From NCBI GenBank assembly GCA_963740575.1, contig CAVUET010000003.1, forward strand, positions 870,887 to 934,886: a stretch of DNA of 64,000 nt, given 5' to 3'. This DNA is from an uncultured Actinomycetota bacterium. Lineage in GTDB: Bacteria > Actinomycetota > Actinomycetes > Actinomycetales > Kineosporiaceae. The position numbers and the translations under genes are program-made. Within the stretch, counting starts at the first letter, position 1; each line of letters starts with the position of its first letter. The notes under the pieces are model-generated. The model ran no database searches. It was given only the letters and a program-made list of their open reading frames with translations, and was not told the DNA's origin. Of this stretch, positions 11,350 through 52,614 are shown one piece after another.

Positions 11350-12328
11350 GTGGAGGGCGAGATCGTGATCGGCGACGACGAGCGTCAGCTCGAGGGGACC
11401 GGGATCTCGGCGCTGGGCACACTGTCTGAGGCGGCCGCCTCGGCGTCGATAGCGGCTCTGGATTGTTCGGTTGCGAATAGTGCCCGGGTGTACGACTACT
11501 GGCTGGGCGGTAAGGACAACTTCGGTGTGGATCGGGAGGTCGGCGCGGCAGTCGCGGCGCTGGCCCCATGGATCGTGCCCGGGGTGCGGGCCAACCGGGC
11601 GTTCCTGCGCCGGGTCGTGCATTGCGTTGCAGACCAAGGGGTTTCACAGTTCCTCGACATCGGTGCAGGGCTCCCGACCAGGCCGAACGTGCACCAGGTC
11701 GCGCAGGCCCGCGACCCTCAGGCCCGGGTGGTCTACCTGGACAATGACCCGGTCGTGCTGGCCCACGCCCGGGCGCTGCTCGCGCGGGACGCACGGACCA
11801 TGGTCGCGGCCGGTGACGCGCGGGATCCGGCCGGGATCCTGGCCGACCCGGTGGTCATCGGGCACCTGGACTGGTCCCGGCCGGTGTGCGTGCTGCTCGG
11901 TGCGCTGCCGCACTTCCTGACCGACACCGACGACCCTGCCGGGACCGTGGCTGCGCTTCGGGCGGCGATGGTGCCGGGCAGCTTTCTGGTCATCTCCCAT
12001 TGCACACCGGGTGCGGGCCGGGCCCAGGCGGCGGCGGTCTCGCAGGCGGTGCGCCTGTACCAGGAGCAGGCCGCCCCGTTCACCCCCCCGCGACCGGCCC
12101 CAGATCGCGGCCTGGCTGCACGGCCTGGACCTGGTCACGCCGGGACTGGTGGCCGTGGACCGCTGGCGAGCCAAACCCCGGCGGCCGGGCCCGCCGATGC
12201 CGATGCTGGCCGCGCTCGCCCGAGTCCCGGGCGACCAACCCAGCCAGGTGCGGATCGCGATCCGGGGTACAGGTGGCCAGGCGGATCAGTCCCTCCTGAT
12301 GGCGCACGGAGATCGGGACCGGTAGCCC
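11350..12328 (+). pseudogene. SAM-dependent methyltransferase (actinobacterial Methyltransf_19/DUF574-like) with a +1 frameshift in a C7 homopolymer at 12082-12088
   Basis: Frame 1 carries ARVYDYWLGGKDNFGVDRE...FLDIGAGLPT...VVYLDNDPVV...QEQAAPFTPP. The conserved C-terminus QIAAWLHGLDLVTPGLVAVDRWRAKPRR continues in frame 2 (ORF 12011..12325). Confidence 0.6.
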
Positions 12329-25791: not shown

Positions 25792-25826
25792 GCCGCACGC
25801 CGACCATGGTCATCGGGCCTCGGCCG

Positions 25827-26814: not shown

Positions 26815-26950
26815 TGCCGATTGAGCTACGCGGGATCGGCGTCCAGAACTGTACCAAGCCCGGGCGTACCGCTGCGCCACCGGGGCATCGCGCGTCGCAG
26901 CCGTCAGCCGCTGGCGCCGCGGCCATCCGTACAGACTCCACTGCCCGGGT

Positions 26951-35966: not shown

Positions 35967-37178
35967 TCACCCACCCGAGACGGACAGCTCGGCGGACAAG
36001 ATATCGGCGGCCTCGGACGAGTCCAGTTCGCGGTCGGCGAGCCAGCCGTCCGGCAGCGACACGGTACGCGCGCTGCCGGTGCGACCGCGCGGCCCCTCGG
36101 CGTCGTCGCCGGGATACGGCTGGCCCGCGTCCAGCCCGGCGATGACCTCGTCCAGCTCGGCCAGCGAGCGCAGGTGCGCCAGCTGCAGCCGGACCTCGTG
36201 CCCGACCGAGTAGCCCTTGAGGTACCAGGCGATGTGCTTGCGGATGTCGCGGCAGGCCCGGTCCTCCGCCAGGGGCACGTCGTTCGGGTGCGAGCGGTCG
36301 CGGCGACGGGCCGGCAGATCCTGGCCGCGGGACGCCGCGTAGTGGTCCACGAGCAGCTCTGTGTGCCGGCGCAGCGTGGCCAGAACCTCGCCGAGGTCGG
36401 GCCGGGCCCGATCCGGACGGCCGGCGAAGGCCGCGGCCAGATCGGCGAAGAGCCATGGCCGCCCGAGGCACCCGCGGCCCACCACGACCCCGTCGCAGCC
36501 GGTCCGGGCCACCATCCGGACGGCGTCGTCACCCGACCAGATGTCGCCGTTTCCCAGCACCGGGATCTCGGGCACCGCCTGCTTGAGCCGGGCGATCGCC
36601 GACCAGTCGGCCGCGCCTGAGTAGTAGTCAGCCGCGGTCCGGGCGTGCAGCGCCACCGCCGCGGCACCCTCCGCCGCCGCGATCCGGCCCGCTTCAAGGT
36701 ACGTCAGATGCTCGGCGTCGATGCCCATCCGCATCTTCACGGTGACCGGGACCCCCCGGGCCGCGGCCGCCTGGACTGCCTGGCGGACGATCCCGGCGAA
36801 GAGCGCGGACTTCCAGGGCAGGGCTGAGCCCCCGCCCTTGCGGGTCACCTTCGGCACCGGGCAGCCGAAGTTCAGGTCGATGTGGTCGGCCCGGTCCTCC
36901 TGGACCAGCATCCGCACCGCCGCACCGACGGTCCCGGGCTCGACCCCGTAGAGCTGGACGCTGCGCGGGTGCTCGTCCGGATCGTTCGCGATCAGCCGCA
37001 GGGACTCGGCGTTGCGCTCGATCAGGGCCCGGGAGGTGACCATCTCGCTGACGAAGATGCCGCCGCCGGGGCCCGCCTGCTCGCGGCACAGGCGGCGGAA
37101 CGCCTGGTTCGTGATGCCGGCCATCGGCGCCAGCACGACCGGCGTGGCCAGCCCGTACGGCCCGATCTTCAGCGTCAC
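35967..37178 (-). CDS. dusB: tRNA-dihydrouridine synthase
   Basis: Reads VLAPMAGITNQAFRRL...IDLNFGCPVPKV...VTVKMRMG. Confidence 0.85.
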   Translation of the reverse strand: MTLKIGPYGLATPVVLAPMAGITNQAFRRLCREQAGPGGGIFVSEMVTSRALIERNAESLRLIANDPDEHPRSVQLYGVEPGTVGAAVRMLVQEDRADHIDLNFGCPVPKVTRKGGGSALPWKSALFAGIVRQAVQAAAARGVPVTVKMRMGIDAEHLTYLEAGRIAAAEGAAAVALHARTAADYYSGAADWSAIARLKQAVPEIPVLGNGDIWSGDDAVRMVARTGCDGVVVGRGCLGRPWLFADLAAAFAGRPDRARPDLGEVLATLRRHTELLVDHYAASRGQDLPARRRDRSHPNDVPLAEDRACRDIRKHIAWYLKGYSVGHEVRLQLAHLRSLAELDEVIAGLDAGQPYPGDDAEGPRGRTGSARTVSLPDGWLADRELDSSEAADILSAELSVSGG

Positions 37179-37227: not shown

Positions 37228-37881
37228 TCAGCCGAGCAGCCAGCCGGCCTCGTCGGCCAGGCGCACCGCCTCGGCCCGGGTCCGGGCGCCGGTCTTGCCG
37301 ATCGCGGCGGACAGGTAGTTGCGCACGGTCCCCTCGGACAGGTGCAGCCCTCGCGCCAGGTCGGCCACGGTGCCGCCCTCCCGAGCGGCGCGCAGCACCT
37401 GCGTCTCCCGGTCGGTCAGCGGGCTGGTGCCCGCGGCCAGGCTCTCGGCGGCCAGCACGGGGTCGACCACCCGCAGCCCGGCGTGCACCCGGCGGACCGC
37501 GTCGGCCAGCTGCCGGGCCGGGGTGTCCTTGACGACGAACCCGCTGGCGCCGGCCTCCATCGCCCGGCGCAGGTAGCCCGGCCGGCCGAAGGTCGTGACC
37601 ACCAGCACCCGGCAGTGCGGGACCGCCGCGCGCAGTGCGGCGGTGGCGGCAAGCCCGTCCATGCCCGGCATCTCGATGTCGAGCAGGGCGACATCCGGCG
37701 CGCCGGCCCGGGCCGCCGGGACCACCTCGTCACCCCTGCCGACCTCGGCCACCACCACCAGGTCAGGCTCCAGGGACAGCAGCGAGGCCATCGCGCCGCG
37801 GACCAGCGCCTGGTCGTCGGCCAGCAGCAGCCGGATCGCCCGGGTCCCGGTTCCGGTACCGTCCGCGCCGGCGCCGCGCAT
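37228..37881 (-). CDS. LuxR/NarL-family response regulator
   Basis: Receiver domain IRLLLADDQALVRGAMASLL...ALLDIEMPGMDGL. C-terminal HTH TDRETQVLRAAREGGTVADLARGLHLSEGTVRNY. Confidence 0.85.
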   Translation of the reverse strand: MRGAGADGTGTGTRAIRLLLADDQALVRGAMASLLSLEPDLVVVAEVGRGDEVVPAARAGAPDVALLDIEMPGMDGLAATAALRAAVPHCRVLVVTTFGRPGYLRRAMEAGASGFVVKDTPARQLADAVRRVHAGLRVVDPVLAAESLAAGTSPLTDRETQVLRAAREGGTVADLARGLHLSEGTVRNYLSAAIGKTGARTRAEAVRLADEAGWLLG

Positions 37882-37907
37882 GTCCGGGTCGCCCGGCAGC
37901 ACGCCGT

Positions 37908-38999
37908 TCACCAGCCCACCCGCAGCACGAATCCGCCCTCGGGGGCGTGCGCCACGGTCAGCACGGCCCCGGCCTGGGTGGCCCGCTCGCGCAGCCCGGC
38001 CAGTCCGTGCCCGGACGGATCCGGGGAGCCCGGCCCCGGACCGCGCCCGTCGTCGACGATCTCCACCGCGTCCGGGCTGAGCCGGACCGCGCACCGTCGC
38101 GCACCGCTGTGCCGGACCACGTTGGTCACGCCCTCGCGGACCGCCCAGCCGAACAACTGCCGCCGCTCCCCCGGGACGTCGTCGACGGCGCCGGGCAGCA
38201 CCGCCTCGATGCCGGCGGCGTCCAGCGCGGCCCGGGCCCAGGCCAGCTCCACGGCGAGGTTGGCCTCGCGGTAACCGGCGACCGCCGCGCGGACGTCGGC
38301 GAGGGCATCCCGCGCGAGCCGCTCGACCTCGGCGATCTCGGCCTCGGCCCGGTCCGGGGCGACCCGCACCAGCCGGCCGGCCAGCTCCGTCTTCATGGTC
38401 ATCACGGTCAGGCGATGACCGAGGATATCGTGCAGGTCCCGGGCGAACCGGGCCCGCTCCTGGGCGACAGCCAGCCGGCCAGCTGGCGTTGCGCGGCAGC
38501 GAGCTCGGCGTTGCGCATCAGCATCTGGCCGATCCCCCACATCGCCAGCGCGGCGACGAACACGGACAGGCGAAGCTGGTCCACCGGCTTCCAGCCGGGC
38601 ACCAACCGGGAGGACACCTCGATCCCGATGATCAGCACCGCGACCAGAGCGATCGCCACCCGCAACGGCAGTATGAACATGATCAGCACGGCCAGGAAGA
38701 CGGTCATCGCCAGCGCGCTCTGCCCAGCGGCCGGGATCGCCAGCGCGAACAGCGCAGTGCCGACCAGGAAGATCCTCAGCCGCATCGCCGTGTCCATCCG
38801 GCGCTGCTCGTGCCGGTACCGGCGGACCACGGCCCAGGCCCAGATGTAGTTGATCGAGAAGCCGATCGTGGCCGTGACGCCAACGACGCGCAGCACCGGG
38901 TCGTGGGCGCGCCAGGACTGGGTCAGGGTGTCCTGCAGGTAGATCAGCCAGATCGCGGACAGGATCCAGCCGTAGCGCCAGCGTCCCGGCATGACCCCG
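37908..38999 (-). pseudogene. DesK/NarX-like sensor histidine kinase (HisKA_3 plus HATPase) with a frameshift near 38485
   Basis: The membrane domain is in ORF 38408..39196. Kinase core ERARFARDLHDILGHRLT...GLAGLRERA is in ORF 37908..38540. The frames meet at cagctggccggctggctgtcgcc. Confidence 0.6.
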
Positions 39000-39204
39000 A
39001 TCGGCTGCGGGCCCGCTTCCAGGTCGGACGGCTGCTCGGGCCCGGGGCTGCCGCTCCGGGCGGCGCCGGGCCCGGGCGGCGCGTCGGCCCGTCGGCCCCC
39101 GAACGACCGGAGCCGGTCCAGCCGCGTCTGCTGCGACTGGACCGGCTCCGCCCTGGCCTGCACGGCCGGGGTCCGATCGGTGCTCACGCCGGTCACGCTA
39201 CGGC

Positions 39205-39976
39205 TCAGACCCGAGCCGTGTCGCGGCGGAACAGTGCCGCCGCGGCGGTGCCGAAGACCACCGTCCAGGCCACTAGGTTCACCATGGCGGAGACGCCGAA
39301 CCCGCTGTGCACCAGTGGATCACGGGCGATCTCGCCGACGCCGTACACCGGGGTGAACCTGGCGACCTGCTGCATCGTCGTGCGCATCACCGACAGCGGC
39401 ACGAACAGCCCGCCGAGACATGGCCAGCATGGCCAGCACCGGGCCGAGGAACTGCATCACGTTCTCGGCCGGCAGCGAGGTAGCCGATGAAGAGCCCGAA
39501 GGCGGCGAAGACCAGCGAGCCGAGCCAGGCCGCGAGACCGGACAGCAGCCAGACGTGCAGCGGCATGTGGACCCCGGACAGGGCGCCGACGGCGAACTCG
39601 ACCACGCACCGCGACCAGGCCGAGCACCATCGCGGTCAGCACCTTGGTCGCCACGTAGGCGGCCGGTCGCAGCGGGGTCAGCCGCAGCTGGCGGCTCCAG
39701 CCCAGGGCCCGCTCGACGGAGACCATCGCCCCGCCGGCCGGTGGTGGCGACCATCGCCCCGTACACGGCCAGGCTGATCATGATGTACGACGCGGCGTCT
39801 GGCGCCCGCTGTCGAGTTGTTCTGGTTCCCCTTGGCCGAAGAGCAGGAAGAAGCACGGCCGGCATGATCAGGGTGAAGACCAGGGTGCGCCGGTTGCGCA
39901 GCACGCGGCGCATCTCCAGGTCGAGGAAGACCAGGGTGAAGCCGCCCAGTGCAGGCGCCGCTGCGCTCCGCGGCAT
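39205..39976 (-). pseudogene. ABC-2 type transporter permease fragmented across at least four reading frames
   Basis: Permease segments appear in ORFs 39320..39976, 39457..39726, 39387..39605 and 39205..39402. Confidence 0.5.
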
Positions 39977-40012
39977 GCCGCATGCTGGCTGTGCGGGTGA
40001 CAGCGGTGGTGC

Positions 40013-41006
40013 TCATCGGGAGCTCCTGTCCTGGGCGCTGGTCACTGCCGGCCCCTGGGTCCTGGTCAGGGCGAGGAAGGCCTCCTCGAGGTTGCGCGAG
40101 GTGATCTCCAGGTCCCGGGCGGTGGTGAAGGTGAGCAGGTAGCGGGCCACCGCGTCGGAGTCGGCGGCGCTGATCAGCACCTGATCGCCGCGTAGCTGAA
40201 CCGAGCGCACCCCGGGCAGGCCGAGCAGCGCGGTCTCGTTCGCATCCGGCAGGGTGGCGCGCACCTGCCGCCCGGAGGCCAGGTTCTTGATCTCGGCGGT
40301 GGTGCCGTCGGCGACCACCTGCCCGGACCGGATCAGCACGATCCGGTCGGCGTAGGCGTCCGCCTCGTCCAGGTAGTGGGTGGCGAACAGGACCGTCCGC
40401 CCGCGCTCGGCGTCCTGGCGGATGGCGGTCCAGAAGTCGCGCCGGCCCTCGACGTCCATCCCGGTGGTCGGCTCGTCGAGGACCATCAGCTCGGGATCGG
40501 GCAGCAGCGCCAGCGCGAACCGCAGCCGCTGCTGCTGGCCGCCGGAGCACCTGCCCACCCGGCGGTCGGCGATGTCGGCGATCCCGGCGCGCTCGAGCAC
40601 CTCGTCGACCGGCCGGCTGTAGGCGAACAGGGTGGAGGTCAGCCGGACCGTCTCGGCCACGGTCAGGTCCTTGAGCAGGCCGCCGGTCTGCATCACCGCG
40701 GCGATCCGGCCGCGGGCGATGGCGTCAGCCTGGACGGCCGCCGAGGACGCGCACGGTGCCCTGGTCGGGCCGGGCCAGCCCCAGCATCATGTCGATGGTG
40801 GTGGTCTTGCCAGCGCCGTTCGGGCCGAGGAAGGCGACGATCTCGCCCGGTTCAACGACCAGGTCGAGGTCGTCGACGGCGGCGACCGAGCCGAAACGCT
40901 TGACCACGCCGGAGAGTTGGAGGGCGGGGCTTCCGATCGCCGGACCGATGGCTGGGTCGGGACTGGTGGGCGGGGACGCTGGGGTGATGGACGCGGTGTG
41001 ACTCAT
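40013..41006 (-). pseudogene. ABC transporter ATP-binding protein with a frameshift near 40700-40730
   Basis: Walker [11 protein letters not shown] is in ORF 40725..41072. Signature LSGGQQQRL and Walker B MVLDEPTTGMD are in ORF 40013..40696. The two are in different frames. Confidence 0.6.
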
Positions 41007-41229
41007 GGCATCCAGGTTGCCGGTGCCGCCGGGGGCCGACGCCTGCCGCGCGTCATGCATCCGGCATGACATCTGTCAGGCCCGGAGGCTGGCTGCCCGA
41101 CATCCTCGGGACACCTTCGCCCGGTGGCGGTCCCTGCTGCCCTTCGTCAGCGCGGGGCGGCTCAGCCAGCCTGGACGACTGAGACGCCACCCCGCGGCGG
41201 GCGACGGTGAAACGGGGGACAGGAGGAGC

Positions 41230-42636
41230 TCAGCAGCCGAGCAGCCGACCGGCCAGCCAGCCCGAGACCTTGTCCAGCCCGACCCGTTCCTGACGCATCG
41301 AGTCGCGCTCCCGGATCGTCACGGCCTGGTCGGTCAGGGTGTCGAAGTCGACGGTGACGCAGAACGGCGTGCCGATCTCGTCCTGTCGGCGGTACCGGCG
41401 GCCGATCGCCTGCGCGTCGTCGAACTCGATGTTCCAGTGCTTGCGCAGCTCCGCGGCCAGGTCCCGTGCCTTCGGGGACAGGTCCTCGTTGCGGGACAAT
41501 GGCAGCACGGCCACCTTGACGGGGCTGAGCCTGGGGTCGAGCCGCAGCACGATCCGCTTGTCCACGCCGCCCTTGGTGTTCGGCGCCTCGTCCTCGTCAT
41601 AGGCCTCGACCATGAACGCCATCATCGAGCGGGTCAGGCCGGCGGCCGGCTCGATCACGTACGGCACCCACCGCTCGCTCTTGGCCTGGTCGAAGTACGA
41701 CAGGTCCACCCCGGAGTGCTTGGAGTGGGTCGTGAGGTCGAAGTCCGTGCGGTTCGCGATGCCCTCCAACTCGCCCCACTCCGAGCCGATGAATCCGAAC
41801 CGGTACTCGATGTCGACCGTCCGCTTGGAGTAGTGGGACAGCTTCTCCTTCGGGTGCTCGAAGTGGCGCAGGTTGTCCCGGGAGATGCCGAGGCCCGTGT
41901 ACCAGTCGGTCCGGTAGTCGATCCAGTACTGGTGCCAGCGCTCGTCGGTGCCCGGCTCGACGAAGAACTCCATCTCCATCTGCTCGAACTCGCGGGTACG
42001 GAAGATGAAGTTGCCGGGCGTGATCTCGTTGCGGAACGACTTGCCGATCTGGCCGATGCCGAACGGCGGCTTCTTGCGCGAGGACTGCTCGACGTTGCGG
42101 TAGTTGACGAAGATGCCCTGCGCGGTCTCGGGCCGCAGGTAGTGAAGGCCCGACTCGTCCTCGACCGGGCCGAGGAAGGTCTTCAGCAGGCCGTTGAACA
42201 TCTTCGGCTCGGTCCAGGCGCCCCTGGTGCCGCAGTTCGGGCAGGGCACCTCCTGCAACGAGGTCGCGGGGCGGCCCTTGCGCTCGGCGAACTCCTCCTC
42301 GAGGGTGTCCGCGCGGTAGCGGCGGTGGCAGGACTGGCACTCGACGAGCGGGTCGACGAACGCCTCCACGTGTCCCGAGGCGACCCAGACCTGCCGGGGA
42401 AGGATCACCGAGGAGTCCAGGCCGACGACGTCCTCGCGGCCGGTGACCATCGCGCGCCACCACTGCCGCTTGATGCCCTCCTTCAGCTCCACGCCGAGCG
42501 GTCCGTAGTCCCACGCGGATCGGGTGCCGCCGTAGATCTCCCCACACGGGTACACGAAGCCCCGGCGCTTGGAGAGATTGATGACGGACTCGAGGCGGGC
42601 CTCGGACGAGGGCTTGCTGGCCACGGGTAACTCCAT
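41230..42636 (-). CDS. glyQS: Glycine--tRNA ligase (dimeric class II)
   Basis: Reads [20 protein letters not shown]... with class II motifs. Confidence 0.9.
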
Positions 42637-43105: not shown

Positions 43106-46000
43106 TCAGGCCACCCGGTGGCGGTACCCGGGGACCAGCGACTCGACCAGCGCGTCGGTCTCCGCCTGGGCCCCGCCGGGGACCTGCTCGGCCGCCAGCG
43201 TGAGGTACAGATGGTCGGCGATCGAGGCCGCGGCGGCCGGGCCGCCCCGGTCGTGATGCAGGCGCAGCAGCTCGCGCCAGAGCACCTCTGCCCCGGGCAC
43301 CAGCCGCAGACCGGCGCGCAGGGCCTCCTCGGCGAGGGCAGCATCCCCGCAGTCGAGCGCGAGCCGGCTGAGCCGGCCGGCCGCGGACACGAGTGCCTGC
43401 CGGATCCGACTCTCCGCCCGGGTCCGTGGCAGCCAGGCGTAGCGCCCCGCGGGCAGGCCGATCCAGGCCGGACCACGGACGAAGGCCAGGGCCGCTGCGA
43501 GGTCCCGGGCCTCGTCGGCGCCGTGGGCGCCCGTGACCAGCGCCTCGGCCGCCAGCGCGTCGACCCGCACGTCGGATGCGAGGTGCCAGCGACCGTCATC
43601 CCCGCGGTACAGCCGTGGCCGGTTGTCCGGGCCGGACCCCAGCCACTCCTGCACCTGGGACATGGTCGCGGACTGCACGGCCTCATCGGTTCCCCGCGGC
43701 CACAGGTAGGACGCGAGCACGTTGGGGTGCAGGCCCCGCGGGTGCAGGGCCACGGCCACGACGATCTCGGTCGCCTGGTCCCGCCGGGCGGCGTGGATCG
43801 GGCCGGGGGCCTCGATCTCGACCGGACCGAGCATCCGCACCTCGACCGGGAACCGCCGCGCCGGGTCGTCGTGACCGGCCGGCAGGGCCGGGCTGCCCGG
43901 TGTCGGGTCGTCGCTCGGCGGTCGCTCGCTCCGTGTCCCGCCCGAGAATGCCCTGACCACCGGCCCGTACGCCTGCGGCGGCAGTTGCTGCGCCTGCACG
44001 TCCAAGCCGAGCACGGGCGCGTGCAGGGTCCCGTCCTCGCCGACCGCGGTCCGCCACCGGGCGCTCGGCACATCCCCGACCACCAGCACGGCGACGGCGC
44101 GGTGAGGATCCTCGGCCAGTCCCGCCAGCCGGATCGCCTGCTCGGCGGTCGGCGGCGCGGACAGCACGAGCACCTGCGGGCACCACAGCGCGGCGTCCGG
44201 CCTCGTCAGCCGACCGCGGAGCACGCCCCCCACCCCGGCGTCGGCGCAGACCGCCGCCTGCGCGGCCGTCTTGCGCTCCACGTCTGCGAGCACCTGCTCC
44301 AGCTCGTCCACCCGGCGCATCCGTTCGGGCGCCACGGCGGTGAGGTCGTCCCCGAACCCGACCAGGGTGATCGCCACCTCGTCGGACCACAGGTTCGTGC
44401 CGAGCTCGAGCGCCATCGACGCGCCGACGTGCCTGGCCACGGTGGCCTGCCCGCCGAGGCTGATCACGCCCGGCGCGGCCTCCAGGTTGAGCAGGACCAC
44501 GGCACCGTCCACCTGGCGGCGGCCGAGGCTGACCAGCGCCGGATACGGGGCCGGTGCGGGCCCGGGACCCGGGACGCCGACCGGCGCGTCAGCAGCCAGC
44601 ATCCAGCTCCGTCCGGACGGGTCGCAGACCCAGGGGGCGGGAGCGTCCGCGACGCCCGGGGCGAGCGCGAGGGTGATCGCGCCGGATCTGACGAACGCCG
44701 CGTACGCCGGAGGGAGCGGCCGTCCCTGGACGGCCATCTCGCGGGCCAGTCCGCGAAGGGCGAGGTCTACCCGCCGGGCCGCCGCCTCGTCCGCGGCCAG
44801 GCGAAGCGCCACCTCGGCCTCGAGCGTGTCATCGTCGAGCGGATCGGCCAGCGGTCCGCGCCGTCGTCGCAGGGCCACCAGGAGGCCCGCCGCCAGAGCC
44901 GCGGACGCGGCCCCCAGGCCTGCCGCCAGCCCGGTGGCCGACAGCGCCTCGTGGCCGGAACCGGCCAGGCCGGCGTGATCCGAAGACGCGGCACCCGGCG
45001 CACCGGCGCCCTGGGCGTCCCCGGATCCCCGCCCCTCGGAGGGTCCGGGCACGTGGGCCGGTGCCGGCGCGACGATCCGCAGCCCCGGACCGGCGGCGTC
45101 CCTCGGCATCACCAGAACCCAACCGGGATAGATCAGATCGGGGTCCTTGAGGGTCCGCCCGTCAGGCTGCAGCCGGCCACGGTTGAGCGCGACCAGCTCG
45201 CGGTAGCGCGACCCGCTGCCGAGGTAACGCTCCGCGATGTCCCACAGGCACTCGTAATTCCGCCCGTGTGGCGGCTTCACCTCGTAGAGCTTGGTCAGCC
45301 CGTGCACGGCCGCGGTCGTCGCGTCCGCGCCTGCGGCCTCCGCTCCGCTGCCGGTGCCGGATGTCGCGAAGGCAGCCACAGCGCCCGGCCCTGCGGTCAC
45401 CCCGGCGCCGTTGCCCGCTGCCGCCCCGCCCCCCGGCTGGACGGCGTGCCCGGGGTGCTGCCCGGCCACGGCCACCGCCCCGGCGGCGGGCCTGGCGGCC
45501 GGGGCGGCCATCGCTGCCGGGGCGGCCATCCCGGTGCCGGCGGTCAGGACCAGCAGCGCGCCGATCAGGCGGCGGGCCAGCGCCTGGTTCACGCCCCCGA
45601 ACGGAACCCGGACCCCCAGGCCCCGACCCCGGCGCTCGTTCCGCAGCTCCACCAGCACGCAGCAGGCGAAGTGCAGCCATGCCGCCCAGACCAGCACGGT
45701 CAGGATGCGCAGCACCGTCCCGGTGTCCAGCGGTGCGCTGAGCCAGCCGGTCGACGGCAACTCGGTCGGCAGCGGTGACCCGGCGAACCGGAGCAGTGCC
45801 AGCGGGGCGCCGATCAGCAGGGCCAGCAGCGCCAGTAGCGCCAGTAGCGCACCGGCGACCTCTGCCGGGGTGCGCCGTCGGTCGGAGCCCGACGGCAGCC
45901 GCGGGTGTGTGGTGGTACTCGTCACCGGGCATCGCCTCCGTTCACGGCCGGATCGCCTGCATGCCGAACCCGCCGTCGATCGCTGTGCCTGCCGGACCAC
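43106..46000 (-). CDS. Large membrane-anchored protein with a LysM domain and a C-terminal BTAD (SARP-type activator) domain
   Basis: TM helix ALLALLALLALLIGAPLALL. LysM YEVKPPHGRNYECLWDIAERYLGSGSRYRELVALN...LIYPGWVLVMP. C-terminal BTAD-like helical repeats (...LRLHHDRGGPAAAASIADHLY...). Confidence 0.65.
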   Translation of the reverse strand: MVRQAQRSTAGSACRRSGRERRRCPVTSTTTHPRLPSGSDRRRTPAEVAGALLALLALLALLIGAPLALLRFAGSPLPTELPSTGWLSAPLDTGTVLRILTVLVWAAWLHFACCVLVELRNERRGRGLGVRVPFGGVNQALARRLIGALLVLTAGTGMAAPAAMAAPAARPAAGAVAVAGQHPGHAVQPGGGAAAGNGAGVTAGPGAVAAFATSGTGSGAEAAGADATTAAVHGLTKLYEVKPPHGRNYECLWDIAERYLGSGSRYRELVALNRGRLQPDGRTLKDPDLIYPGWVLVMPRDAAGPGLRIVAPAPAHVPGPSEGRGSGDAQGAGAPGAASSDHAGLAGSGHEALSATGLAAGLGAASAALAAGLLVALRRRRGPLADPLDDDTLEAEVALRLAADEAAARRVDLALRGLAREMAVQGRPLPPAYAAFVRSGAITLALAPGVADAPAPWVCDPSGRSWMLAADAPVGVPGPGPAPAPYPALVSLGRRQVDGAVVLLNLEAAPGVISLGGQATVARHVGASMALELGTNLWSDEVAITLVGFGDDLTAVAPERMRRVDELEQVLADVERKTAAQAAVCADAGVGGVLRGRLTRPDAALWCPQVLVLSAPPTAEQAIRLAGLAEDPHRAVAVLVVGDVPSARWRTAVGEDGTLHAPVLGLDVQAQQLPPQAYGPVVRAFSGGTRSERPPSDDPTPGSPALPAGHDDPARRFPVEVRMLGPVEIEAPGPIHAARRDQATEIVVAVALHPRGLHPNVLASYLWPRGTDEAVQSATMSQVQEWLGSGPDNRPRLYRGDDGRWHLASDVRVDALAAEALVTGAHGADEARDLAAALAFVRGPAWIGLPAGRYAWLPRTRAESRIRQALVSAAGRLSRLALDCGDAALAEEALRAGLRLVPGAEVLWRELLRLHHDRGGPAAAASIADHLYLTLAAEQVPGGAQAETDALVESLVPGYRHRVA

Positions 46001-46016
46001 CGCGCGGCCGGGCGCC

Positions 46017-46925
46017 TCATCGCAGCACCGCCTCGACCTCCTGCACCGGGATCAGCTGGACGCTGCTCACGTCGTAGGTACCGAGCGCGTGCCGGGCTCC
46101 CCCGGCGTCGGTCCAGGCCACCTCCCAGTAGGCGTCGGCCCGCACGGGGTAGGCCGCACCCGGCAGGTAGGCGCTGGACCGGGTGTAGGTGAACTGGCAG
46201 TCGGACGGCTGGCCGAAGGGATCGATCGTGGTGTCGTAGGCCACCGTGCCCGCACCGCAGTCGACTGCCGGCTCCGTGGCGGAGACCCCGGGATGGACCA
46301 CCAGATGCACCAGTTGCGCGGTCATCCGGATCTGCTGCGTCCCGTCGAAGACCGTCCGGTCCACCGGCGCCGCCGGCGGCCCGGCGAGCCAGAACACCGC
46401 CGGGACGTTCACCCGGGGCCGCACCGTCGGCCCGACGCTCAGCACCGGCGTCGGGTAGGTCGAGGCGAAGGTGTCCCACAGCCAGGCCATGTAACCGGGT
46501 GCCACGACCTCCTGTCCGGCCGGGCGCCAGACCAGCTGCGTGACCGGATGGGCGTTCGGGCCACCGCGGACGGCGTTGAGGTTGTAATCCCGGATGCAGG
46601 TCTCCATCCACCAGTCGCCCGGCGCGCCGTCCGGCGATGGCGGGGTGGACACACCGGCGGGCACCGGGTCGTCACGGCAGGCGATGAACGGCCGTCCGCC
46701 GAGCAGCTCGCGCCAGGTCTGCGGTGTCCCGGTCGCGCCACCGCACCAGGCACCGAATCCCACGCCGTTGGCGTAGAGCGTGCAGCGTTGCTGCACCGCG
46801 ACTGTGGGGCTGGAGGAGACCGGCGGTGGGGTGAAGTCACCCAGCGACCAGGCCGGCTCAGCCTGCAGCAGCAGCAGGGCGGCCGCGGCGACCGGCAGCC
46901 AGCGCAGCCTCGACCGCGCGCTCAC
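46017..46925 (-). CDS. Secreted hypothetical protein with a signal peptide
   Basis: GTG 46925 overlaps the upstream stop (GTGA). Signal peptide LRWLPVAAAALLLLQAEPAWS. Confidence 0.5.
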   Translation of the reverse strand: MSARSRLRWLPVAAAALLLLQAEPAWSLGDFTPPPVSSSPTVAVQQRCTLYANGVGFGAWCGGATGTPQTWRELLGGRPFIACRDDPVPAGVSTPPSPDGAPGDWWMETCIRDYNLNAVRGGPNAHPVTQLVWRPAGQEVVAPGYMAWLWDTFASTYPTPVLSVGPTVRPRVNVPAVFWLAGPPAAPVDRTVFDGTQQIRMTAQLVHLVVHPGVSATEPAVDCGAGTVAYDTTIDPFGQPSDCQFTYTRSSAYLPGAAYPVRADAYWEVAWTDAGGARHALGTYDVSSVQLIPVQEVEAVLR

Positions 46926-47563
46926 CGTGCCGCCGCGCAGGAGAAGGTGGCGTCGTACACCTGGTCGACCTTCCAGGCACCGCCGGTTCTGAACAGGCGC
47001 ATGTCCTCGCCGTACCACCTGTCCGTCACCGGTTCCGCCCACTTCTTGGTGCGCGCGTCCATCAGCCCACCAGACGGCCCCCACACGCAGGCTCGCACGC
47101 GCGCCGTGGATCCCGTGTGCGTCACGCCGACCATGGCCCAGCGACCCGGCCGCGGCACGGTCAGGTGCTTGGACTTCCAGTTCTGAAACTTGGCGGTCTG
47201 GTCCTTCAGAAAGGAGGCGCTGGTCAGGGCGACGAACGCCGGCAGCCGCGGGTTGTCCGTGATGCCGGCCTCGGTCCTGGCCCGCAGCCAGGCCGCGGCG
47301 GCCTGGACGATGGGGTCCTTGCCGAACGCGCCGACGTTCACGTTGGCCCACGGCTGCGAGCCCGTGCCGGCCGGTGAGCCGGTGGTGCCGGCTGGCGTCG
47401 TCGTGGCCGGCGACGCGCTCGCGGGTGACGTGACCGGCGAGGATGACCCTGCCGTGTCCAGAGTGGAACCCGGTCCGCAGGCCGCCAGCAACGCGGTGAC
47501 CGCCGTCGCGATCGCCGCCATGACAACACGGCGCGCCGCGGCGCGCCCCCGAATCCGGCGCAT
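46922..47563 (-). CDS. Lipoprotein (lipobox LLAACG), paralog of 54346..55062
   Basis: Reads MRRIRGRAAARRVVMAAIATAVTALLAACG. C-terminal ...VRACVWGPSGG...WKVDQVYDATFSCAAAR matches ...VRACSWGPSEQ...WRVDHIYTAEFSCRPAR. Confidence 0.55.
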   Translation of the reverse strand: MRRIRGRAAARRVVMAAIATAVTALLAACGPGSTLDTAGSSSPVTSPASASPATTTPAGTTGSPAGTGSQPWANVNVGAFGKDPIVQAAAAWLRARTEAGITDNPRLPAFVALTSASFLKDQTAKFQNWKSKHLTVPRPGRWAMVGVTHTGSTARVRACVWGPSGGLMDARTKKWAEPVTDRWYGEDMRLFRTGGAWKVDQVYDATFSCAAAR

Positions 47564-47670
47564 GGTCCCCGTTCCCTTCGCAGATCCGTTCACCCAACTG
47601 CGGTTCCGCAGACTACCGATCATGACCGACAGGCGGCTGCTGCCGACGGCGGTGGCTGTCCGCACGCGCC

Positions 47671-48315
47671 TCAACCTCCCGCCGGTGGTGTGGTGACTCT
47701 GGGCGTCCCGGTGGGCGATCCCGTCGGGGTCCCGGTCGGGGTCGGCTCCGGCGGCTCGGTCGCTGTCGGCGACGGTTCCGGCGTGCCGACCGGGATGGGC
47801 AGCGGCACCTTCGTGATGCTCACCGTCGGCGCCGGGACTCCCGGGTAGCTGTTCAGGCCGGTGACGCCCTGCTGGGCCGTGGCCCGGCCGGTACCGCCGG
47901 CGGTGAGCGTCCGCAGCCCCACGGCGGACAGCATGGTGGCCCGCATCTGGATCTCGGTGCGCACGGTGACCTGCAACCCGTCCACGGCGGTGACGCCGCA
48001 CTCCACCAGCGCGGGCTCGGCCGCCACCGCCGCGGCGCAGAACTGGGTCACCGCCGCCCGGGCCGCGGCTGGATCGATCACGGCGTTCTGGTCGGTGAGG
48101 TTGATCCGCTCGGCCCCGGCTCGGGCTGCCTCCTGCGCGTACGCCTCGGCCCGGGACCTGGCGTCCAACTGGCGCGCGGAGTCGACCACGAGGCCGCAGA
48201 GCAGGAACAGCATGATCGCGATGATGGGGATCGCGGGGGCGATGGAGCCGCGGTCGCCGGGACCGCCCGCCGTGGGGTCGTCCGCCGTGGGACGGCTCAT
48301 TGCCGGCCCGTTCAT
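47671..48315 (-). CDS. TadG-like/pilus-assembly membrane protein with a Pro/Thr-rich C-terminus
   Basis: N-terminal TM IAPAIPIIAIMLFLLCGLVV. ATGA overlap with the upstream tadE-like gene. Confidence 0.5.
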   Translation of the reverse strand: MNGPAMSRPTADDPTAGGPGDRGSIAPAIPIIAIMLFLLCGLVVDSARQLDARSRAEAYAQEAARAGAERINLTDQNAVIDPAAARAAVTQFCAAAVAAEPALVECGVTAVDGLQVTVRTEIQMRATMLSAVGLRTLTAGGTGRATAQQGVTGLNSYPGVPAPTVSITKVPLPIPVGTPEPSPTATEPPEPTPTGTPTGSPTGTPRVTTPPAGG

Positions 48316-48776
48316 CGGGTCCCCCGGTATGGGTCCAACGGGCTGGTGAACGAGCGGGTCATCACCGTGGACGGCAGCGGCAGGCCCAGGTCGGTCATGG
48401 TCCGCGTGCACCAGACCCGGACGGTGACGTACGAGCCCGGGACGAACCCCGCCGGGTCGTCGACCGACCAGCCGGCGGAGTCCCGGCACGATGCCGGCGC
48501 CTCCGCGAGCGTCTGCTGCACGATCAGCCGGACCTGCTGGTCGGCCGCGACCAGGGTGCGCGAGCGGGTCGCGGCCCGGCTGCCGTCCCGCGCCGCGGTC
48601 TCCAGCAGGCCGCTGACGTGCACCTGCCGGGCTGAGGCGAGCAGCAGGGCGAGCACCGCCAGCAGGGCCGGCACCACGATCACCAGCTCGAGCGACATCG
48701 CGCCCCGATCGGATCGGCCCTGATCGGATCCGCCCCGATCGGATCCGCCCCGATCGCCGCGCCGCCGCCCGATCAC
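48312..48776 (-). CDS. TadE-like pseudopilin
   Basis: Reads SLELVIVVPALLAVLALLLASARQ. ATGA overlap with the upstream gene. Confidence 0.6.
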   Translation of the reverse strand: MIGRRRGDRGGSDRGGSDQGRSDRGAMSLELVIVVPALLAVLALLLASARQVHVSGLLETAARDGSRAATRSRTLVAADQQVRLIVQQTLAEAPASCRDSAGWSVDDPAGFVPGSYVTVRVWCTRTMTDLGLPLPSTVMTRSFTSPLDPYRGTR

Positions 48777-49195
48777 TGATCCACCTGGAACTGCTCGATC
48801 TCACCGTCCCCGCTGGCGTGCACGGTCAGGGTGACGCCCGGGACGAGCGAGACGGCCTGCGCGGTCACCGTGACCCGGACCCGGGTGCCGCTGATCACGG
48901 TCGCGGTCGCGGACGGCTTCGACACGGTGTCCCGGCCGACCACCCGCAGGTAGTTCTCCGCCGTCGCCTGTACCGCGGTCAGGGCGGACGTGGTGTCCGA
49001 GCCGACCACGACCACGCGCAGCTGGGAGGCGCCCTCGCGGGCCGCCTGCAGCGCGACGTTGCGCCCGTAGAGCCATAACGCCACCTGGATCATGAAGAAG
49101 ATCAGCAGCAGCAGGCCCGGAGCGACGATGGACAGCTCCAGGGCGCTGGCGCCGCGATCGCGGCGACAGCGACGTGACAGGCGAGCGGCCGACAC
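48773..49195 (-). CDS. TadE-like pseudopilin
   Basis: Reads ASALELSIVAPGLLLLIFFMIQVALW. Confidence 0.6.
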   Translation of the reverse strand: MSAARLSRRCRRDRGASALELSIVAPGLLLLIFFMIQVALWLYGRNVALQAAREGASQLRVVVVGSDTTSALTAVQATAENYLRVVGRDTVSKPSATATVISGTRVRVTVTAQAVSLVPGVTLTVHASGDGEIEQFQVDQ

Positions 49196-49198
49196 GCC

Positions 49199-49444
49199 CT
49201 AGCAGCCGTTCGCGCCGACCGGCTGGTTGGCACAGTTCTGCAGGTCCTGGCCCTTCTGCCGGACGACCGCCACCACGATGCCGCCGATGATCACGGCCGC
49301 CGTGACCAGGATCGCCGAGATGACCGCCCACTCCAGCGCCGAGGCGCCGAGGTCGCGTGGCCGGTCGCCAGCGCCGCCGTCCGCGCGCATCATCCGTGCC
49401 CGGGTCAGGCCGTGGCGCCACAGGTCCAGGGCCATCAGCAGCAT
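49199..49444 (-). CDS. flp: Flp/Fap-family pilin precursor
   Basis: Reads LGASALEWAVISAILVTAAVIIGGIVVAVV (Flp motif). A GGAGGAG Shine-Dalgarno lies 5 nt before ATG 49444. Confidence 0.6.
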   Translation of the reverse strand: MLLMALDLWRHGLTRARMMRADGGAGDRPRDLGASALEWAVISAILVTAAVIIGGIVVAVVRQKGQDLQNCANQPVGANGC

Positions 49445-49458
49445 CTCGTCTCCTCCGT

Positions 49459-49510
49459 CAGGTGCTGTGCAGGTTTCAGGTGCTGTGCAGGTTTCAGGTG
49501 CTGTGCAGGA
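49459..49510. repeat. 18-bp tandem repeat caggtgctgtgcaggttt, 2.9 copies, in the tadC-flp spacer
   Basis: Directly visible. It lies between the flp start (49444) and the tadC stop (49494) and spans the tadC stop. Confidence 0.8.
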
Positions 49511-50495
49511 TGTTCCAGGCGGCCGGGAAGGACAGGAACAGCAGGAACGCCGTCACCAGCAGCAGCTGGGCGATGAGCATGGACTGGGACTTCTCGGCGG
49601 CGGTGCCGGCGGCCTCGGCCAGCTCCCGGCGGCGCAGGCTCTCAGCGCGGGCGGTCAGCGAGGAGCGGATCTTCGCGCCCTCGTCCCCGGCCAGGGTCAG
49701 CGCGCCCGCGAGATCCCGCAGCTCGTCCACGCCGATCTCCTCGCCCAGGCGGCCCAACGCCTCCCACGGGGTCAGCCCGATCAGTCGCGCCCCGGACAGC
49801 GCCTGCCGGATCCGGGCCATCGCCCAGTGGTCCCCGATGGTCGCGCTGGCCACCAGCGCCTCGGGCAGCCCGCGCCCACCGGCGAGGTTCATGGCGACGA
49901 GGTCGAGGAACGAGCCCATCACGTGCCGGAAATCCTTGCGCCGGCGCTGCGCCTCACCGTGCACCTGGGCGTCGGGCAGGAAGAACGCCACTGCCGCCAG
50001 TGCGAGCCCCACGACCACGGGAACCGTCCCGGGCAGCGGCAGGCCGAACAGCCGCAGCGCGGCCCACAGCAGCGGCATCCAGACCAGGGCGCCGACCGCG
50101 AAGAACAGCTTGGTGGCCAGGTGCGCGCCGAGCGGCCGGGCGAGCACGCCGAGGTCGGCACGCAGCCGCGGCAGGCGCAGGCCACGCTCGTCCGCCCACG
50201 TCTCCAGCCGGCCGCCGACCCGGTCCCGCAGCCGGTCCACGGCGTCCTGCCGGACGGGCACCTGCTCGGCCGGCCCGAACCGCCGCCGGCCCGCGACCCG
50301 CGCGGCGTCCAGCCGGGCCAGCCGGGTACCGATCCCCGGCTCGGGCCGGAACAGGGCCTGCACCAGCAGATACAGCCCCAGCCCGACGACCGCTCCGGCG
50401 ACCAGTGCGACGGTCATGATGCCTCGCCGGCGGTGGTCCGCCGCATCAGCAGGAAGCGCTCGGGCTGCTCGAACCGGGCCAGCCTGCGCAGCCAC
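49494..50495 (-). CDS. tadC: TadC (T2SS-F domain) pilus assembly membrane protein
   Basis: T2SSF-type helical membrane protein in the Tad gene order. Confidence 0.75.
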   Translation of the reverse strand: MAAQAGPVRAARALPADAADHRRRGIMTVALVAGAVVGLGLYLLVQALFRPEPGIGTRLARLDAARVAGRRRFGPAEQVPVRQDAVDRLRDRVGGRLETWADERGLRLPRLRADLGVLARPLGAHLATKLFFAVGALVWMPLLWAALRLFGLPLPGTVPVVVGLALAAVAFFLPDAQVHGEAQRRRKDFRHVMGSFLDLVAMNLAGGRGLPEALVASATIGDHWAMARIRQALSGARLIGLTPWEALGRLGEEIGVDELRDLAGALTLAGDEGAKIRSSLTARAESLRRRELAEAAGTAAEKSQSMLIAQLLLVTAFLLFLSFPAAWNILHST

Positions 50496-51310
50496 GCCAC
50501 CCCGGCTCCGAAGAGCAGGATGACCACGGCGAGCACGACCTGGCCGAGCAGGCTGCGGTAGGGCGCGACGTACCCCGGGTTGAGCAGGGTCAGCATCCCC
50601 GCGACGCCGAGGGTGATCGCCACCACGATCTGCACGCTGCGCCGGGTGGACCGTCTCTCGGCCTCGACCCGGCGCCGCATGTCCAGCTCCTCGCGCACCG
50701 ACGAGGCCAGCGCGGTCAGCACCTCGCGCAGGCCCGGTCCGCGCAGCCGCGCGTTCAGCAGCAGGGCCGCCACCACCAGGTCGGCGGACGCGTCGTCGAA
50801 GTCCTCGGCCAGGCGGCGCAGCGCATCCGGCATCGGCTGGCGGATCCGGAGCCGGTCGACGAGCAGGTTCAGGGCCGGGCGGATCAGCGGGGAGGCGGTC
50901 GCGGCGGTGGCCGGGATCGCCTGCTCCAGGCCCACCGCGCCGGCGATGGTGTCCCGCAGCGACTCCGTCCAGGACGCCAGCGCGTCCAGCCTGGCGATGG
51001 CGCGACGCTCCTCGGCGGCACCGCCGAAGAAGCGATCCCAGAGCGACACCAGGCCGCCGAGCGTGACGGCCAGCACCAGCCAGCGGGTGACCATCAGGGT
51101 CACCACAGCCACCGCCACGCCGGCCAGCAGCAGCCGCGGCCGGGCCCCGATCCGGGCCGCGGGGCGCGCGCCCGCGCCGGGCCGTCCCGGATCGCGCGGC
51201 GCGAACCCGACCACGGCCGCCTGCACGAACAGCAGCACGCCGGCACCGGCCAGCGCACCCGCGGCGACGGCGATCGGCAGCTCCAGCTCGCCGCCCAGGG
51301 GCAGGGTCAT
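50414..51310 (-). CDS. tadB: TadB (T2SS-F domain) pilus assembly membrane protein
   Basis: Starts MTLPLGGELELP. ATGA overlap with the tadA stop. Confidence 0.75.
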   Translation of the reverse strand: MTLPLGGELELPIAVAAGALAGAGVLLFVQAAVVGFAPRDPGRPGAGARPAARIGARPRLLLAGVAVAVVTLMVTRWLVLAVTLGGLVSLWDRFFGGAAEERRAIARLDALASWTESLRDTIAGAVGLEQAIPATAATASPLIRPALNLLVDRLRIRQPMPDALRRLAEDFDDASADLVVAALLLNARLRGPGLREVLTALASSVREELDMRRRVEAERRSTRRSVQIVVAITLGVAGMLTLLNPGYVAPYRSLLGQVVLAVVILLFGAGVAWLRRLARFEQPERFLLMRRTTAGEAS

Positions 51311-52614
51311 GCCCACGCCCCGGCGGGTGCGGTCCAGCCGTACTCGGTCAGGTCGGCGGCGCAGGCGACCGGAGCGAACGGCACGCCGCGCCCGTCCCGG
51401 CCGGGGGCGAACACCTCCGAGGACAGCACGCGCTCGCCGTCGAAACCGGTCACCTCGCGCACGCTCTCCACGTAGCGACGCATCCGTCCGCCGTGCACCC
51501 AGTCGTTCCGCTTGCGCAGGAACAGGACGAAGTTGAGCGCGCCGGCGATCAGCATCTGGCTGGCCTGGATCGGCATCCGTTCCTGGGACTGGATCGCGTA
51601 GGTGATGATCCGGTTGAAGACCTCCAGGGACGAGTTCGCGTGGATGGTGGACAGCGACCCGTCGTTGCCCTGGCTCATCGCGTTCAGCATGGTGACGATC
51701 TCGTCGCCGAGCACCTCGCCGACGATGACCCGGCTCGGGTTCTGCCGCAGCGACCGGCGGACCAGGTCGGCCATGGTGACGGCGCCGAGCCCCTCGGAGT
51801 TCGGCAGCCGCTCCTCGAACGCCACCACGTTGGGATGCAGGTCCGGGAACTCGTCCAGCCCGAGCTCGAGCGCCTTCTCGACCGTGACCAGCCGCTCGTG
51901 CGGGCCGATCTCGTTGGCCAGCGCGCGCAGCAGTGTGGTCTTGCCGGCGTTCGTCGGCCCGGCGATCATCAGGTTCTTCCGGGCGGCGACCGTGGCGCGC
52001 AGGAAGTCCGCCAGCTCGGGCGTGATCGACCCGTTGCCGACCAGGTCGGCCAGGAACACCTTGCCCAGCCTGGCCTTCCGGATGGACACCGACGGGCGAC
52101 GGCAGACGCCCTGCACCGCCGACAGCCGGGAGCCGTCCGGCAGCCGCAGGTCCAGCTGCGGGTTGGCGCTGTCGAACGGGCGCGAGGTCAGCCCCGAGTG
52201 GGCGGCCAGGACCTGGACCAGTTCGACCAGCTCCTCGTCGGACTCGGCGACCGCGCCGACCATCTCCTCGCGGCCGTCGGCGTACTGGACGAAGACCTGG
52301 TCGCAGCCGTTGACGTCGATGTTCTCCACGGTGGGGTCGTCCAGGAGCGGCTGCAGCCGGCCGACGCCGAACAGCGCCGCGTGCACGGCGTGCACGAGCT
52401 GGGCCTCCTGCGCCGCGTCCGGCGGCACCCGGCCCCCGGCGATCTCGGCCCGCGCGTGGTCCTCGAGCACCTGGACGATCAGCGACCGGGCGTACTCGCG
52501 CTCGTCCTCGTTCGACATCGGCGGAACGCCGACGGCCTGGTCCCGGCGGCGCTGCTCGCCGAGCAGCTCCGCCACCGAGACCCGCAGGCGGCGGACCAGG
52601 GCGTGCTCGATCAC
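51307..52614 (-). CDS. tadA: CpaF/TadA secretion ATPase
   Basis: Walker A IAGPTNAGKTTLLRAL. Reads ...RVIVGEVLGDE...HANS. GTG 52614 overlaps the tadZ stop (GTGA). Confidence 0.85.
   Translation of the reverse strand: MIEHALVRRLRVSVAELLGEQRRRDQAVGVPPMSNEDEREYARSLIVQVLEDHARAEIAGGRVPPDAAQEAQLVHAVHAALFGVGRLQPLLDDPTVENIDVNGCDQVFVQYADGREEMVGAVAESDEELVELVQVLAAHSGLTSRPFDSANPQLDLRLPDGSRLSAVQGVCRRPSVSIRKARLGKVFLADLVGNGSITPELADFLRATVAARKNLMIAGPTNAGKTTLLRALANEIGPHERLVTVEKALELGLDEFPDLHPNVVAFEERLPNSEGLGAVTMADLVRRSLRQNPSRVIVGEVLGDEIVTMLNAMSQGNDGSLSTIHANSSLEVFNRIITYAIQSQERMPIQASQMLIAGALNFVLFLRKRNDWVHGGRMRRYVESVREVTGFDGERVLSSEVFAPGRDGRGVPFAPVACAADLTEYGWTAPAGAWA

Follow-up and report, generated by a model that had tools for sequence, protein, structure and literature searches.

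The sensor-exporter operon that lies on the minus strand between glyS and dus, in a 64,000-nucleotide stretch of an uncultured actinomycete genome (contig CAVUET010000003.1, positions 870,887 to 934,886), raises the question of whether a regulatory module has decayed in the organism or has merely been broken in the record. This whole stretch is termed the window (G+C ~73%), and all coordinates refer to it unless stated otherwise. The operon comprises four genes that encode an ATP-binding cassette (ABC) ATPase, an ABC-2 permease, a HisKA_3 sensor kinase and a LuxR/NarL-family response regulator. The original prediction for this locus held that every gene except that of the regulator is frameshifted, and preferred genuine decay, which would leave an orphan regulator, over a locally poor assembly. 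The present analysis locates nine frame changes in three of the four genes, and indicates that they most probably belong to a poorly polished patch of consensus sequence.

Position and nature of the frame changes

The ATPase gene (40013..41060, minus strand; DrrA-like) starts at ATG 41060 or 41006, and its stop is overlapped by the ATG of the permease gene (39205..40016, minus strand) at 40016 in the sequence ATGA. The kinase gene (37908..39196, minus strand), which encodes a multi-pass transmembrane N-terminal half, begins with GTG at 39196, 8 nucleotides past the permease stop; the regulator gene (37228..37911, minus strand) begins with GTG at 37911, overlapping the kinase stop as GTGA. Judging from this arrangement, the four genes form one tightly coupled operon, with translation predicted to be coupled via the ATGA and GTGA overlaps.

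Frame breaks were located in two independent ways. One is free of homology and combines a frame plot of the G+C content at third codon positions (GC3) with a hidden Markov model (HMM); the other is frameshift-aware alignment to intact orthologues, for which we used a purpose-written protein-to-DNA aligner that allows frameshifts, run first on orthologues drawn from seven loci, syntenic or related, and in a second round on far closer homologues. The codon-position G+C plot displays shifts of the coding phase within the ATPase, permease and kinase genes and a constant phase across the regulator gene. The seven-state GC3 HMM switches at 40736/37, 39727/28, 39606/07, 39476/77, 39417/18 and 38467/68. 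The two methods bear out the claim that every gene but the regulator is frameshifted; the regulator, at 72-84% identity to its orthologues, aligns with zero frame changes.

Altogether there are nine lesions, seven of +1 and two of -1 nucleotide. The single frameshift of the ATPase gene, originally put at ~40725, is placed at 40730, where a +1 in the coding context cgtcca[G]gctgac falls between Walker A and the Q-loop. Alignment to three orthologues requires a skip at 40730 with no residue lost, and the GC3 phase switches at 40736/40737. The permease gene was credited with at least three frameshifts, which understated the damage: six certain and one probable frame change were found, at positions that agree across five distant and five close homologues. 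From the start of the gene these are a probable +1 at ~39959, backed by five of five close and three of five distant homologues; a +1 at 39853 (gtg[C]ttc); a -1 at ~39800 (39797-39803) and a +1 at 39739, both from frameshift-aware alignment, the latter with an HMM switch nearby at 39727/28; a +1 at 39606 (gtg[C]gtg), where the HMM switches at 39606/07; a +1 at 39473, from alignment, with a switch at 39476/77; and a +1 at 39418 (atgt[C]tc), with a switch at 39417/18. The lesion at 39959 becomes unneeded only if translation starts at ATG 39976 instead of at the conserved, ATGA-overlapping start that reads 'MSTTA...'.

The kinase gene has one lesion, a -1 at ~38478 (38475..38484; originally ~38485), which sits in the linker just upstream of the H-box and is likely a CCC to CC change in ctggcc[c]ggctggct. 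Alignments to the orthologues of three intact loci (L002, L013 and L033) need a 2-nucleotide skip here, as the orthologues have 12 codons against 35 nucleotides in the window. After repair, the kinase reads ...QRQLARLAVAQERARFARDLHD across the lesion.

The lesions belong to the record, since the fragments they produce appear as gene calls on the deposited NCBI/ENA contig of 2,014,730 bp. The ATPase is deposited as an N-terminal (40725-41060) and a C-terminal fragment (40013-40693), matched exactly by products of 111 and 226 amino acids; the kinase as an N-terminal (38408-39196) and a C-terminal fragment (37908-38402/38540), matched by products of 262 and 164 amino acids; and the permease tail of 60 amino acids is matched as well. 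The 227-amino-acid regulator, Dus and the glycyl-tRNA synthetase (GlyRS) have exact matches on the same deposited contig. Barring the record's own calls, each of these products is a singleton at 90% identity among ~15 billion proteins, which thus offer no second assembly or close relative of the operon. A full-length, 100% identical ATPase from another assembly was not found, the best match being 80%, in homology searches of a kind that also missed the window's own proteins.

Repaired genes, lesion spectrum and error calibration

Nine single-base edits turn the three broken genes into three stop-free open reading frames (ORFs). As deposited, the ABC_tran domain is split into residues 2-46 and 66-137 on separate ORFs, at 46 bits per fragment; removal of nucleotide 40730 yields a continuous match to 2-137 of 137 at 106.9 bits (cut-off 25). 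The permease, with six nucleotides removed and one added, becomes a stop-free ORF of 268 amino acids with the C-terminus FRRDTARV, which matches ABC2_membrane (PF01061) over 7-207 of 211 at 64.9 bits (cut-off 26.9) and also PF12698 and PF12679; the deposited permease fragments have zero matches in Pfam. In the deposited kinase, the HisKA_3 and HATPase regions are on another ORF than the transmembrane half.

Further analysis of the repaired products revealed conservation at the level of intact proteins. The repaired permease shares 72-76% identity over 98-100% of its length with intact permeases of Micromonospora, Plantactinospora and Cryptosporangium, and the ATPase shares 72-80% with its homologues, intact Micromonospora ATPases included. 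Conserved sites were scored from more than 110 homologues, a column counting as conserved from 95% upwards. The permease is off at 3 of its 110 such columns, where one change falls on the -1 lesion and the others are A to S and L to M; the ATPase is off at 3 of 179, all conservative. Equal or worse deviation is present in 15 of 114 intact permeases and 22 of 119 intact ATPases. Relative to the regulator, the identity ratio of the ATPase is 0.85-0.92 between the window and intact genomes, compared to 0.84-0.89 among intact genomes; the corresponding ranges are 0.68-0.90 versus 0.65-0.79 for the permease and 0.60-0.68 versus 0.58-0.65 for the kinase. The repaired genes thus display none of the marks of relaxed selection by which a pseudogene is recognized, namely an excess of changes at conserved sites, stops and lower relative conservation. 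Comparison with orthologous operons, proposed earlier as a check, confirmed the lesions against intact orthologues but spoke against decay, because the repaired genes are conserved like intact ones. Dating by dN/dS was infeasible, as the nearest intact homologues stand at 72-80% protein identity and synonymous sites are saturated.

The distribution and type of the lesions were assessed as well. Seven of the nine lie inside 542 nucleotides (P = 0.004 if uniform over the operon), and the rate is 2.9 per kb in the operon versus at least 0.03 per kb elsewhere in the window; the cluster is not due to chance. Insertions account for 78% of the nine lesions, which are mostly outside homopolymers. At least four of them (39853, 39606, 39473 and 39418) neither lengthen a run nor copy the adjacent base, and the isolated lesions of the ATPase (GG) and the kinase (CCC) sit in short runs. 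A search for a motif shared by the lesion sites, such as would mark a methylation-type error or a slippery sequence, returned none above chance; GGCC occurs at 5 of 11 sites, with an uncorrected P of 0.03 over 62 k-mers. Three permease lesions are spaced 130-133 nucleotides apart, which is treated as coincidence, no periodic feature having been seen. Bacterial pseudogenes gain several substitutions for each indel, and among the indels deletions outnumber insertions. Seven neutral indels in a dead gene of 800 nucleotides would therefore be expected to come with tens of substitutions, which are absent here.

A calibration for sequencing error came from a second assembly. An exhaustive search revealed two proteins, P0124 and P0126, with 99-100% identity to proteins of the window but with different ends; they derive from ENA ERZ25039539 contig_61329 (104,440 bp), which has a Flye-style name and of which 13.8 kb were analysed (termed L085). 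Over window positions 21096-26867 (5.8 kb), the two sequences are ~99.9% identical outside a 600-nucleotide divergent patch, with seven 1-nucleotide indels against five mismatches, the extra base being always in the window. The 1-nucleotide indels of L085 relative to the window include those at 23865, 23876 and 24328. At 24328 it is L085 that is broken, the window being in line with homologues, whereas at ~23870 both depart from homologues and also differ from each other. The divergent patch (22664-23284) is inside a GT2 gene, and the window has an additional 28-nucleotide tandem copy at 23411. Beyond the tRNA-Asn gene (26762-26835) the identity of L085 falls to 84-85%, with the break exactly at the tRNA. 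Judging from this identity, the remainder of L085 represents a related species, and contig_61329 would be either chimeric at the tRNA or the product of a recent segment exchange between two related species.

It is this remainder that resembles the operon. Frame changes number 23 over 2 kb in L085 dnaG (5443-7435 of L085) and 15 over 1.35 kb in a Pyr_redox_2 gene (3928-5283 of L085). Among these 38 changes, 27 are +1 (71%); there are zero stops after correction, and the corrected products share 80-87% identity with the window's intact proteins. On these sequence grounds, the lesions of the two L085 genes cannot be biological, and this part of L085 is close to raw-read quality. Its density of 11 changes per kb compares to 13 per kb in the window's permease, and its +1 bias of 71% to the 78% of the nine operon lesions; in both, the sequence between the lesions is cleanly conserved. 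We infer that the same process acted on the window's contig at the operon.

Two further genes of the window are frameshifted, both by +1. The gene of a Methyltransf_19 (S-adenosylmethionine-dependent methyltransferase) protein (11350-12322, plus strand) has a +1 in a C7 run at ~12075 (12070..12085); its Pfam match ends at 214 of 268, the conserved C-terminus (RDRPQIAAWLHGLDLV... / RDRPQIAAWLHGLDLVTPGLVAVDRWR) is in the next frame, and the HMM switches at 12084/85. The second, 14 kb from the operon, encodes a ~460-residue polytopic membrane protein without a Pfam match (24955->23425, minus strand) and is broken at 23878 by a +1 (tgg[A]gacgtc): in alignments to more than 100 homologues the match ends at query residue 369, beyond which the C-terminal ~110 residues continue in another frame. 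In total, ~5 of ~55 genes in the 64 kb are frameshifted. By contrast, ~20 neighbouring genes have complete domains in a single frame, including those of DnaG (five domains), Pyr_redox_2, Dus, dGTPase, malic enzyme, a CpaF-type ATPase, TadB/C, a subtilase and GT2. The original argument from intact neighbours to a purely local density of lesions is weakened by the two additional frameshifted genes. Two other suspected cases were rejected. The GH25 muramidase gene (1565-2548), which looks truncated by Pfam, is whole in one frame, and the long stretches that the GC3 HMM called 'non-coding' within the first 15 kb are due to weaker codon bias, not to dense frameshifts, the methyltransferase excepted.

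Consensus error, decay and other explanations

Taken together, these observations make it probable that the lesions represent a local, poorly polished patch of consensus in a long-read-derived assembly, and that the genes are intact in the organism. Several lines of evidence favour this reading: nine edits give clean ORFs and whole domains with constraint unrelaxed; the +1-biased, mostly non-homopolymer and clumped spectrum fits error better than mutation; the essential dnaG of L085 has the same density and insertion bias; and two unrelated genes of the window are also +1-frameshifted. The patch would cover ~2.3 kb, densest over 540 nucleotides of the permease, and would result from low coverage, strain mixture or lack of polish. 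The organism would carry an intact ATPase, permease and kinase, and the regulator would then not be an orphan. Indels that fragment genes are a known fault of long-read assemblies (PMC12007338). As in the published cases (e.g. Kastor, PMC12007338), single-nucleotide indels split conserved genes of the operon, repair restores full-length homologues, other genes of the same contig are hit, and the related Flye-style contig is alike in essential genes.

Several points weigh against consensus error. The main mismatch is that published consensus errors of Oxford Nanopore Technologies (ONT) reads are mostly homopolymer deletions scattered over the whole genome (PMC12007338), whereas the operon lesions are mainly insertions outside runs, confined to one patch of 0.5-2.3 kb in a window that is otherwise fairly clean. 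The ~20 intact neighbours oblige us to assume a strictly local cause, and the lesions fall inside three genes of an accessory cassette, sparing the regulator, glyS and dus. The exact operon is recorded only in the deposit itself, which makes the evidence on the error status of the lesions indirect; the sequencing platform of the window's contig is deduced from its 2.01-Mb size and its relation to the Flye-style contig; and the ATPase GG and kinase CCC changes could be real slippage mutations.

The rival that was originally preferred is a genuine and very recent pseudogenisation of the exporter and the kinase that would leave a phosphorylatable but partnerless NarL-type regulator. The lesions are indeed present in the deposited record; only genes of an accessory cassette are hit, one absent from most relatives and of a type often lost; neither the regulator nor either housekeeping neighbour is affected; and the kinase CCC to CC and ATPase G to GG changes are plausible slippage. 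Decay of this kind would nevertheless have to produce seven frameshifts in 540 nucleotides essentially without substitutions, stops or larger deletions, an indel-to-substitution ratio beyond known bacterial pseudogenes, through lesions that lack the deletion bias and run association of natural indels. The same pattern stands in an essential gene of the related long-read contig, where error is certain. With constraint unrelaxed, a spectrum unlike that of natural pseudogenes and a match to the dnaG artefacts of L085, the claim of decay does not hold up well, and we regard recent pseudogenisation as unlikely; the poor local assembly that had been offered as its alternative becomes the favoured explanation. 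Still more doubtful is the case in which all nine lesions are real in the following sense: a +1-rich burst of insertions, arising from a local insertion-biased mutation process or from very recent relaxed selection, would have killed the exporter and the kinase of an accessory resistance module in a wild actinomycete population, a course of events that we consider highly improbable. Spared by the burst, the phosphorylatable NarL-type regulator would be left as an orphan that cross-talks with other kinases.

A mixed origin, with the lesion at ATPase 40730 and/or kinase 38478 real and the permease cluster an artefact of reads from a co-occurring strain recruited in polishing, appears improbable too, a shade less so than the insertion burst but more so than recent pseudogenisation. 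The two singletons are ~0.8-0.9 kb from the cluster and lie in short homopolymers, unlike most cluster lesions; the ENA metagenome contig reveals one related organism at ~85% identity and another that is near-identical; and the background frameshifts elsewhere in the window are singletons as well. Two singletons in 2.5 kb are, however, ~30-fold over that background (at least 2 in 61 kb), which argues for the same low-quality zone, and neither the ATPase nor the kinase bears a sign of decay. Programmed recoding, or a functional split of the genes, could draw on the conserved protein sequence kept on either side of each frame change and on nothing more specific. The nine sites have no common slippery heptamer or motif, the orthologues are single ORFs in at least 7 genomes, and the fragments, with Walker A and Walker B on separate pieces and transmembrane helices interrupted, cannot function alone; recoding is effectively excluded.

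The module, its genomic slot and the rest of the window

The slot is bounded upstream by glyS, encoding GlyRS (41230..42624, minus strand; intact, with its exact 464-residue product in the deposit), and downstream by dus, encoding a tRNA-dihydrouridine synthase (35967..37178, minus strand; intact, Pfam Dus at 266 bits). The GlyRS of the window is closest to that of Kineosporia sp. R_H_3 (87% identity), then to that of a Kineosporiaceae metagenome-assembled genome (MAG; 83%), and the host of the module is a Kineosporiaceae-like actinomycete. Across Actinomycetota, the glyS-dus gap ranges from 3 nucleotides to 9.7 kb (55 loci), and few of these loci contain the cassette; Kineosporia sp. R_H_3, the nearest relative by GlyRS, has a 4.3-kb insert without similarity to it. 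The four-gene cassette is intact in loci L002, L013 and L033, and also, with the same ATGA overlap, in another neighbourhood of Micromonospora sp. NBC_01796. The window's permease is 76% identical to its Micromonospora counterpart versus 56% to the syntenic copy in a Kineosporiaceae MAG, which suggests horizontal movement of the cassette. Because the slot is variable, few of the 55 loci contain the cassette and Micromonospora has it elsewhere, the module is accessory and portable. A search of the operon for repeats, mobile-element ends and duplications returned only chance matches of G+C-rich sequence, and a scan for sigma-70 promoters and intrinsic terminators, uninformative in an actinomycete of 73% G+C, gave no match.

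Domain analysis upheld the originally proposed gene identities and order, with a DesK-like kinase and a LuxR/NarL regulator behind the ATPase and permease. The kinase matches HisKA_3 over 1-67 of 68 at 66-69 bits, and an H-box (FARDLHDILGH) and an N-box (REGVTNVVRHSG) are seen in its sequence; HATPase_c by itself gives a weak match of 19 bits, below its cut-off of 26.4. The regulator matches Response_reg over 2-111 of 111 at 82 bits and GerE over 2-57 of 57 at 42.9 bits. Thus a HisKA_3 kinase with an H-box and an ATP-binding domain adjoins a receiver-GerE regulator, as is characteristic of NarL/DesK-class two-component systems. The features of an ABC-2 exporter, a contiguous nucleotide-binding domain and a polytopic ABC2_membrane permease beside the ATPase, emerge only after repair.

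The best solved relative of the kinase is DesK of Bacillus subtilis, aligned over residues 231-413 (E 1.5e-24) in a stretch that spans the lesion. The module shares with the DesK-DesR thermosensor (PDB 3GIG, 3EHH, 7SSJ) the cytoplasmic core of the kinase (DHp HisKA_3 plus ATP-binding) and the NarL-family partner, but its transmembrane sensor half is unrelated in sequence and its genomic partner is an ABC exporter, not a desaturase; the comparison with DesK gives no evidence that the module's kinase senses temperature or membrane fluidity. The exporter most resembles DrrAB, the daunorubicin-resistance ABC-2 exporter: drrA (206.7 bits) and the DrrB family (47 bits) are the best NCBIfam models, and a DrrA1-3_C-like C-terminal domain is present. 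Assignment to the DrrA or DrrB subfamily was rejected, as the scores are below the curated cut-offs (TIGR01188, 206.7 versus 312.45; the DrrB models TIGR01247 and TIGR00025, 47.2 versus 146.9 and 24.1 versus 223), and in contrast to DrrAB the module is outside an antibiotic biosynthesis cluster and next to a two-component system.

Closest in composition among characterised systems are the LnrJK-LnrLMN (YfiJK-YfiLMN) and YvfTU-YvfRS systems of B. subtilis, in which a multi-pass HisKA_3 kinase, a LuxR/NarL regulator, an ABC ATPase and an ABC-2 permease are likewise adjacent, a comparison based on domain composition and adjacency, both of which are found here. The module differs in having the transporter first, one permease gene instead of two, an actinomycete host and, as deposited, three of four genes interrupted. 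Of the suggested YvfRSTU/LiaFSR-type layout, the likeness to YvfRSTU thus stands and that to LiaFSR falls away, since none of the four genes between glyS and dus is LiaF-like and Strep_LiaS scores 29.1 bits versus 450. A BceRS-BceAB type was rejected as well, the regulator being GerE/LuxR and not OmpR, and the permease being an ABC2_membrane protein of 268 amino acids without a large loop, and not an FtsX-type protein with a large extracellular domain.

Beyond the operon, several features of the window deserve mention. The first 15 kb may have been acquired, as codon bias is weaker there and the genes include those of the GH25 muramidase, an HD_5 protein and a subtilase. Two tRNA-Met(CAT) genes (13719-13795 and 15195-15269), located 1.5 kb apart in a 161-nucleotide repeat (91% identical), enclose genes for a Glyoxalase_6 protein and a YoeB-type toxin. 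At 16478-19801 (minus strand), one ORF of 1108 residues in a single coding phase combines APH, Peptidase_M23 and class-III aminotransferase domains in an unusual three-domain fusion. A tad/flp-type pilus locus (43109-54187, minus strand) encodes three TadE-like proteins, two TadB/C T2SSF proteins and one CpaF-type T2SSE ATPase; beside it lies the gene of a 949-residue lineage-specific protein with LysM-like and BTAD-like relatives and a best database match of 65%.

In B. subtilis, the kinase and regulator of the LnrJK-LnrLMN and YvfTU-YvfRS systems induce the ABC exporter, which confers resistance to membrane-active polyene (PMC4672918, PMC7472640). By analogy, the kinase of the module would probably sense a membrane-active compound or the activity of the transporter, and would phosphorylate the regulator and so induce the exporter. 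The module is a routine member of a very common actinobacterial type, with an ordinary DrrAB-like exporter and a DesK-class sensor pair. Were the lesions real, they would provide a modest example of module decay that spares the regulator, unsurprising for an accessory cassette. The locus also illustrates a way to tell error from decay without reads, by looking for insertion-biased, non-homopolymer, clumped frameshifts in genes that pass tests of conserved sites and of relative conservation. Caution is needed in reading the deposit, annotation of which would yield three pseudogenes and a regulator labelled an 'orphan', together with several spurious short ORFs, although the module is most likely working.

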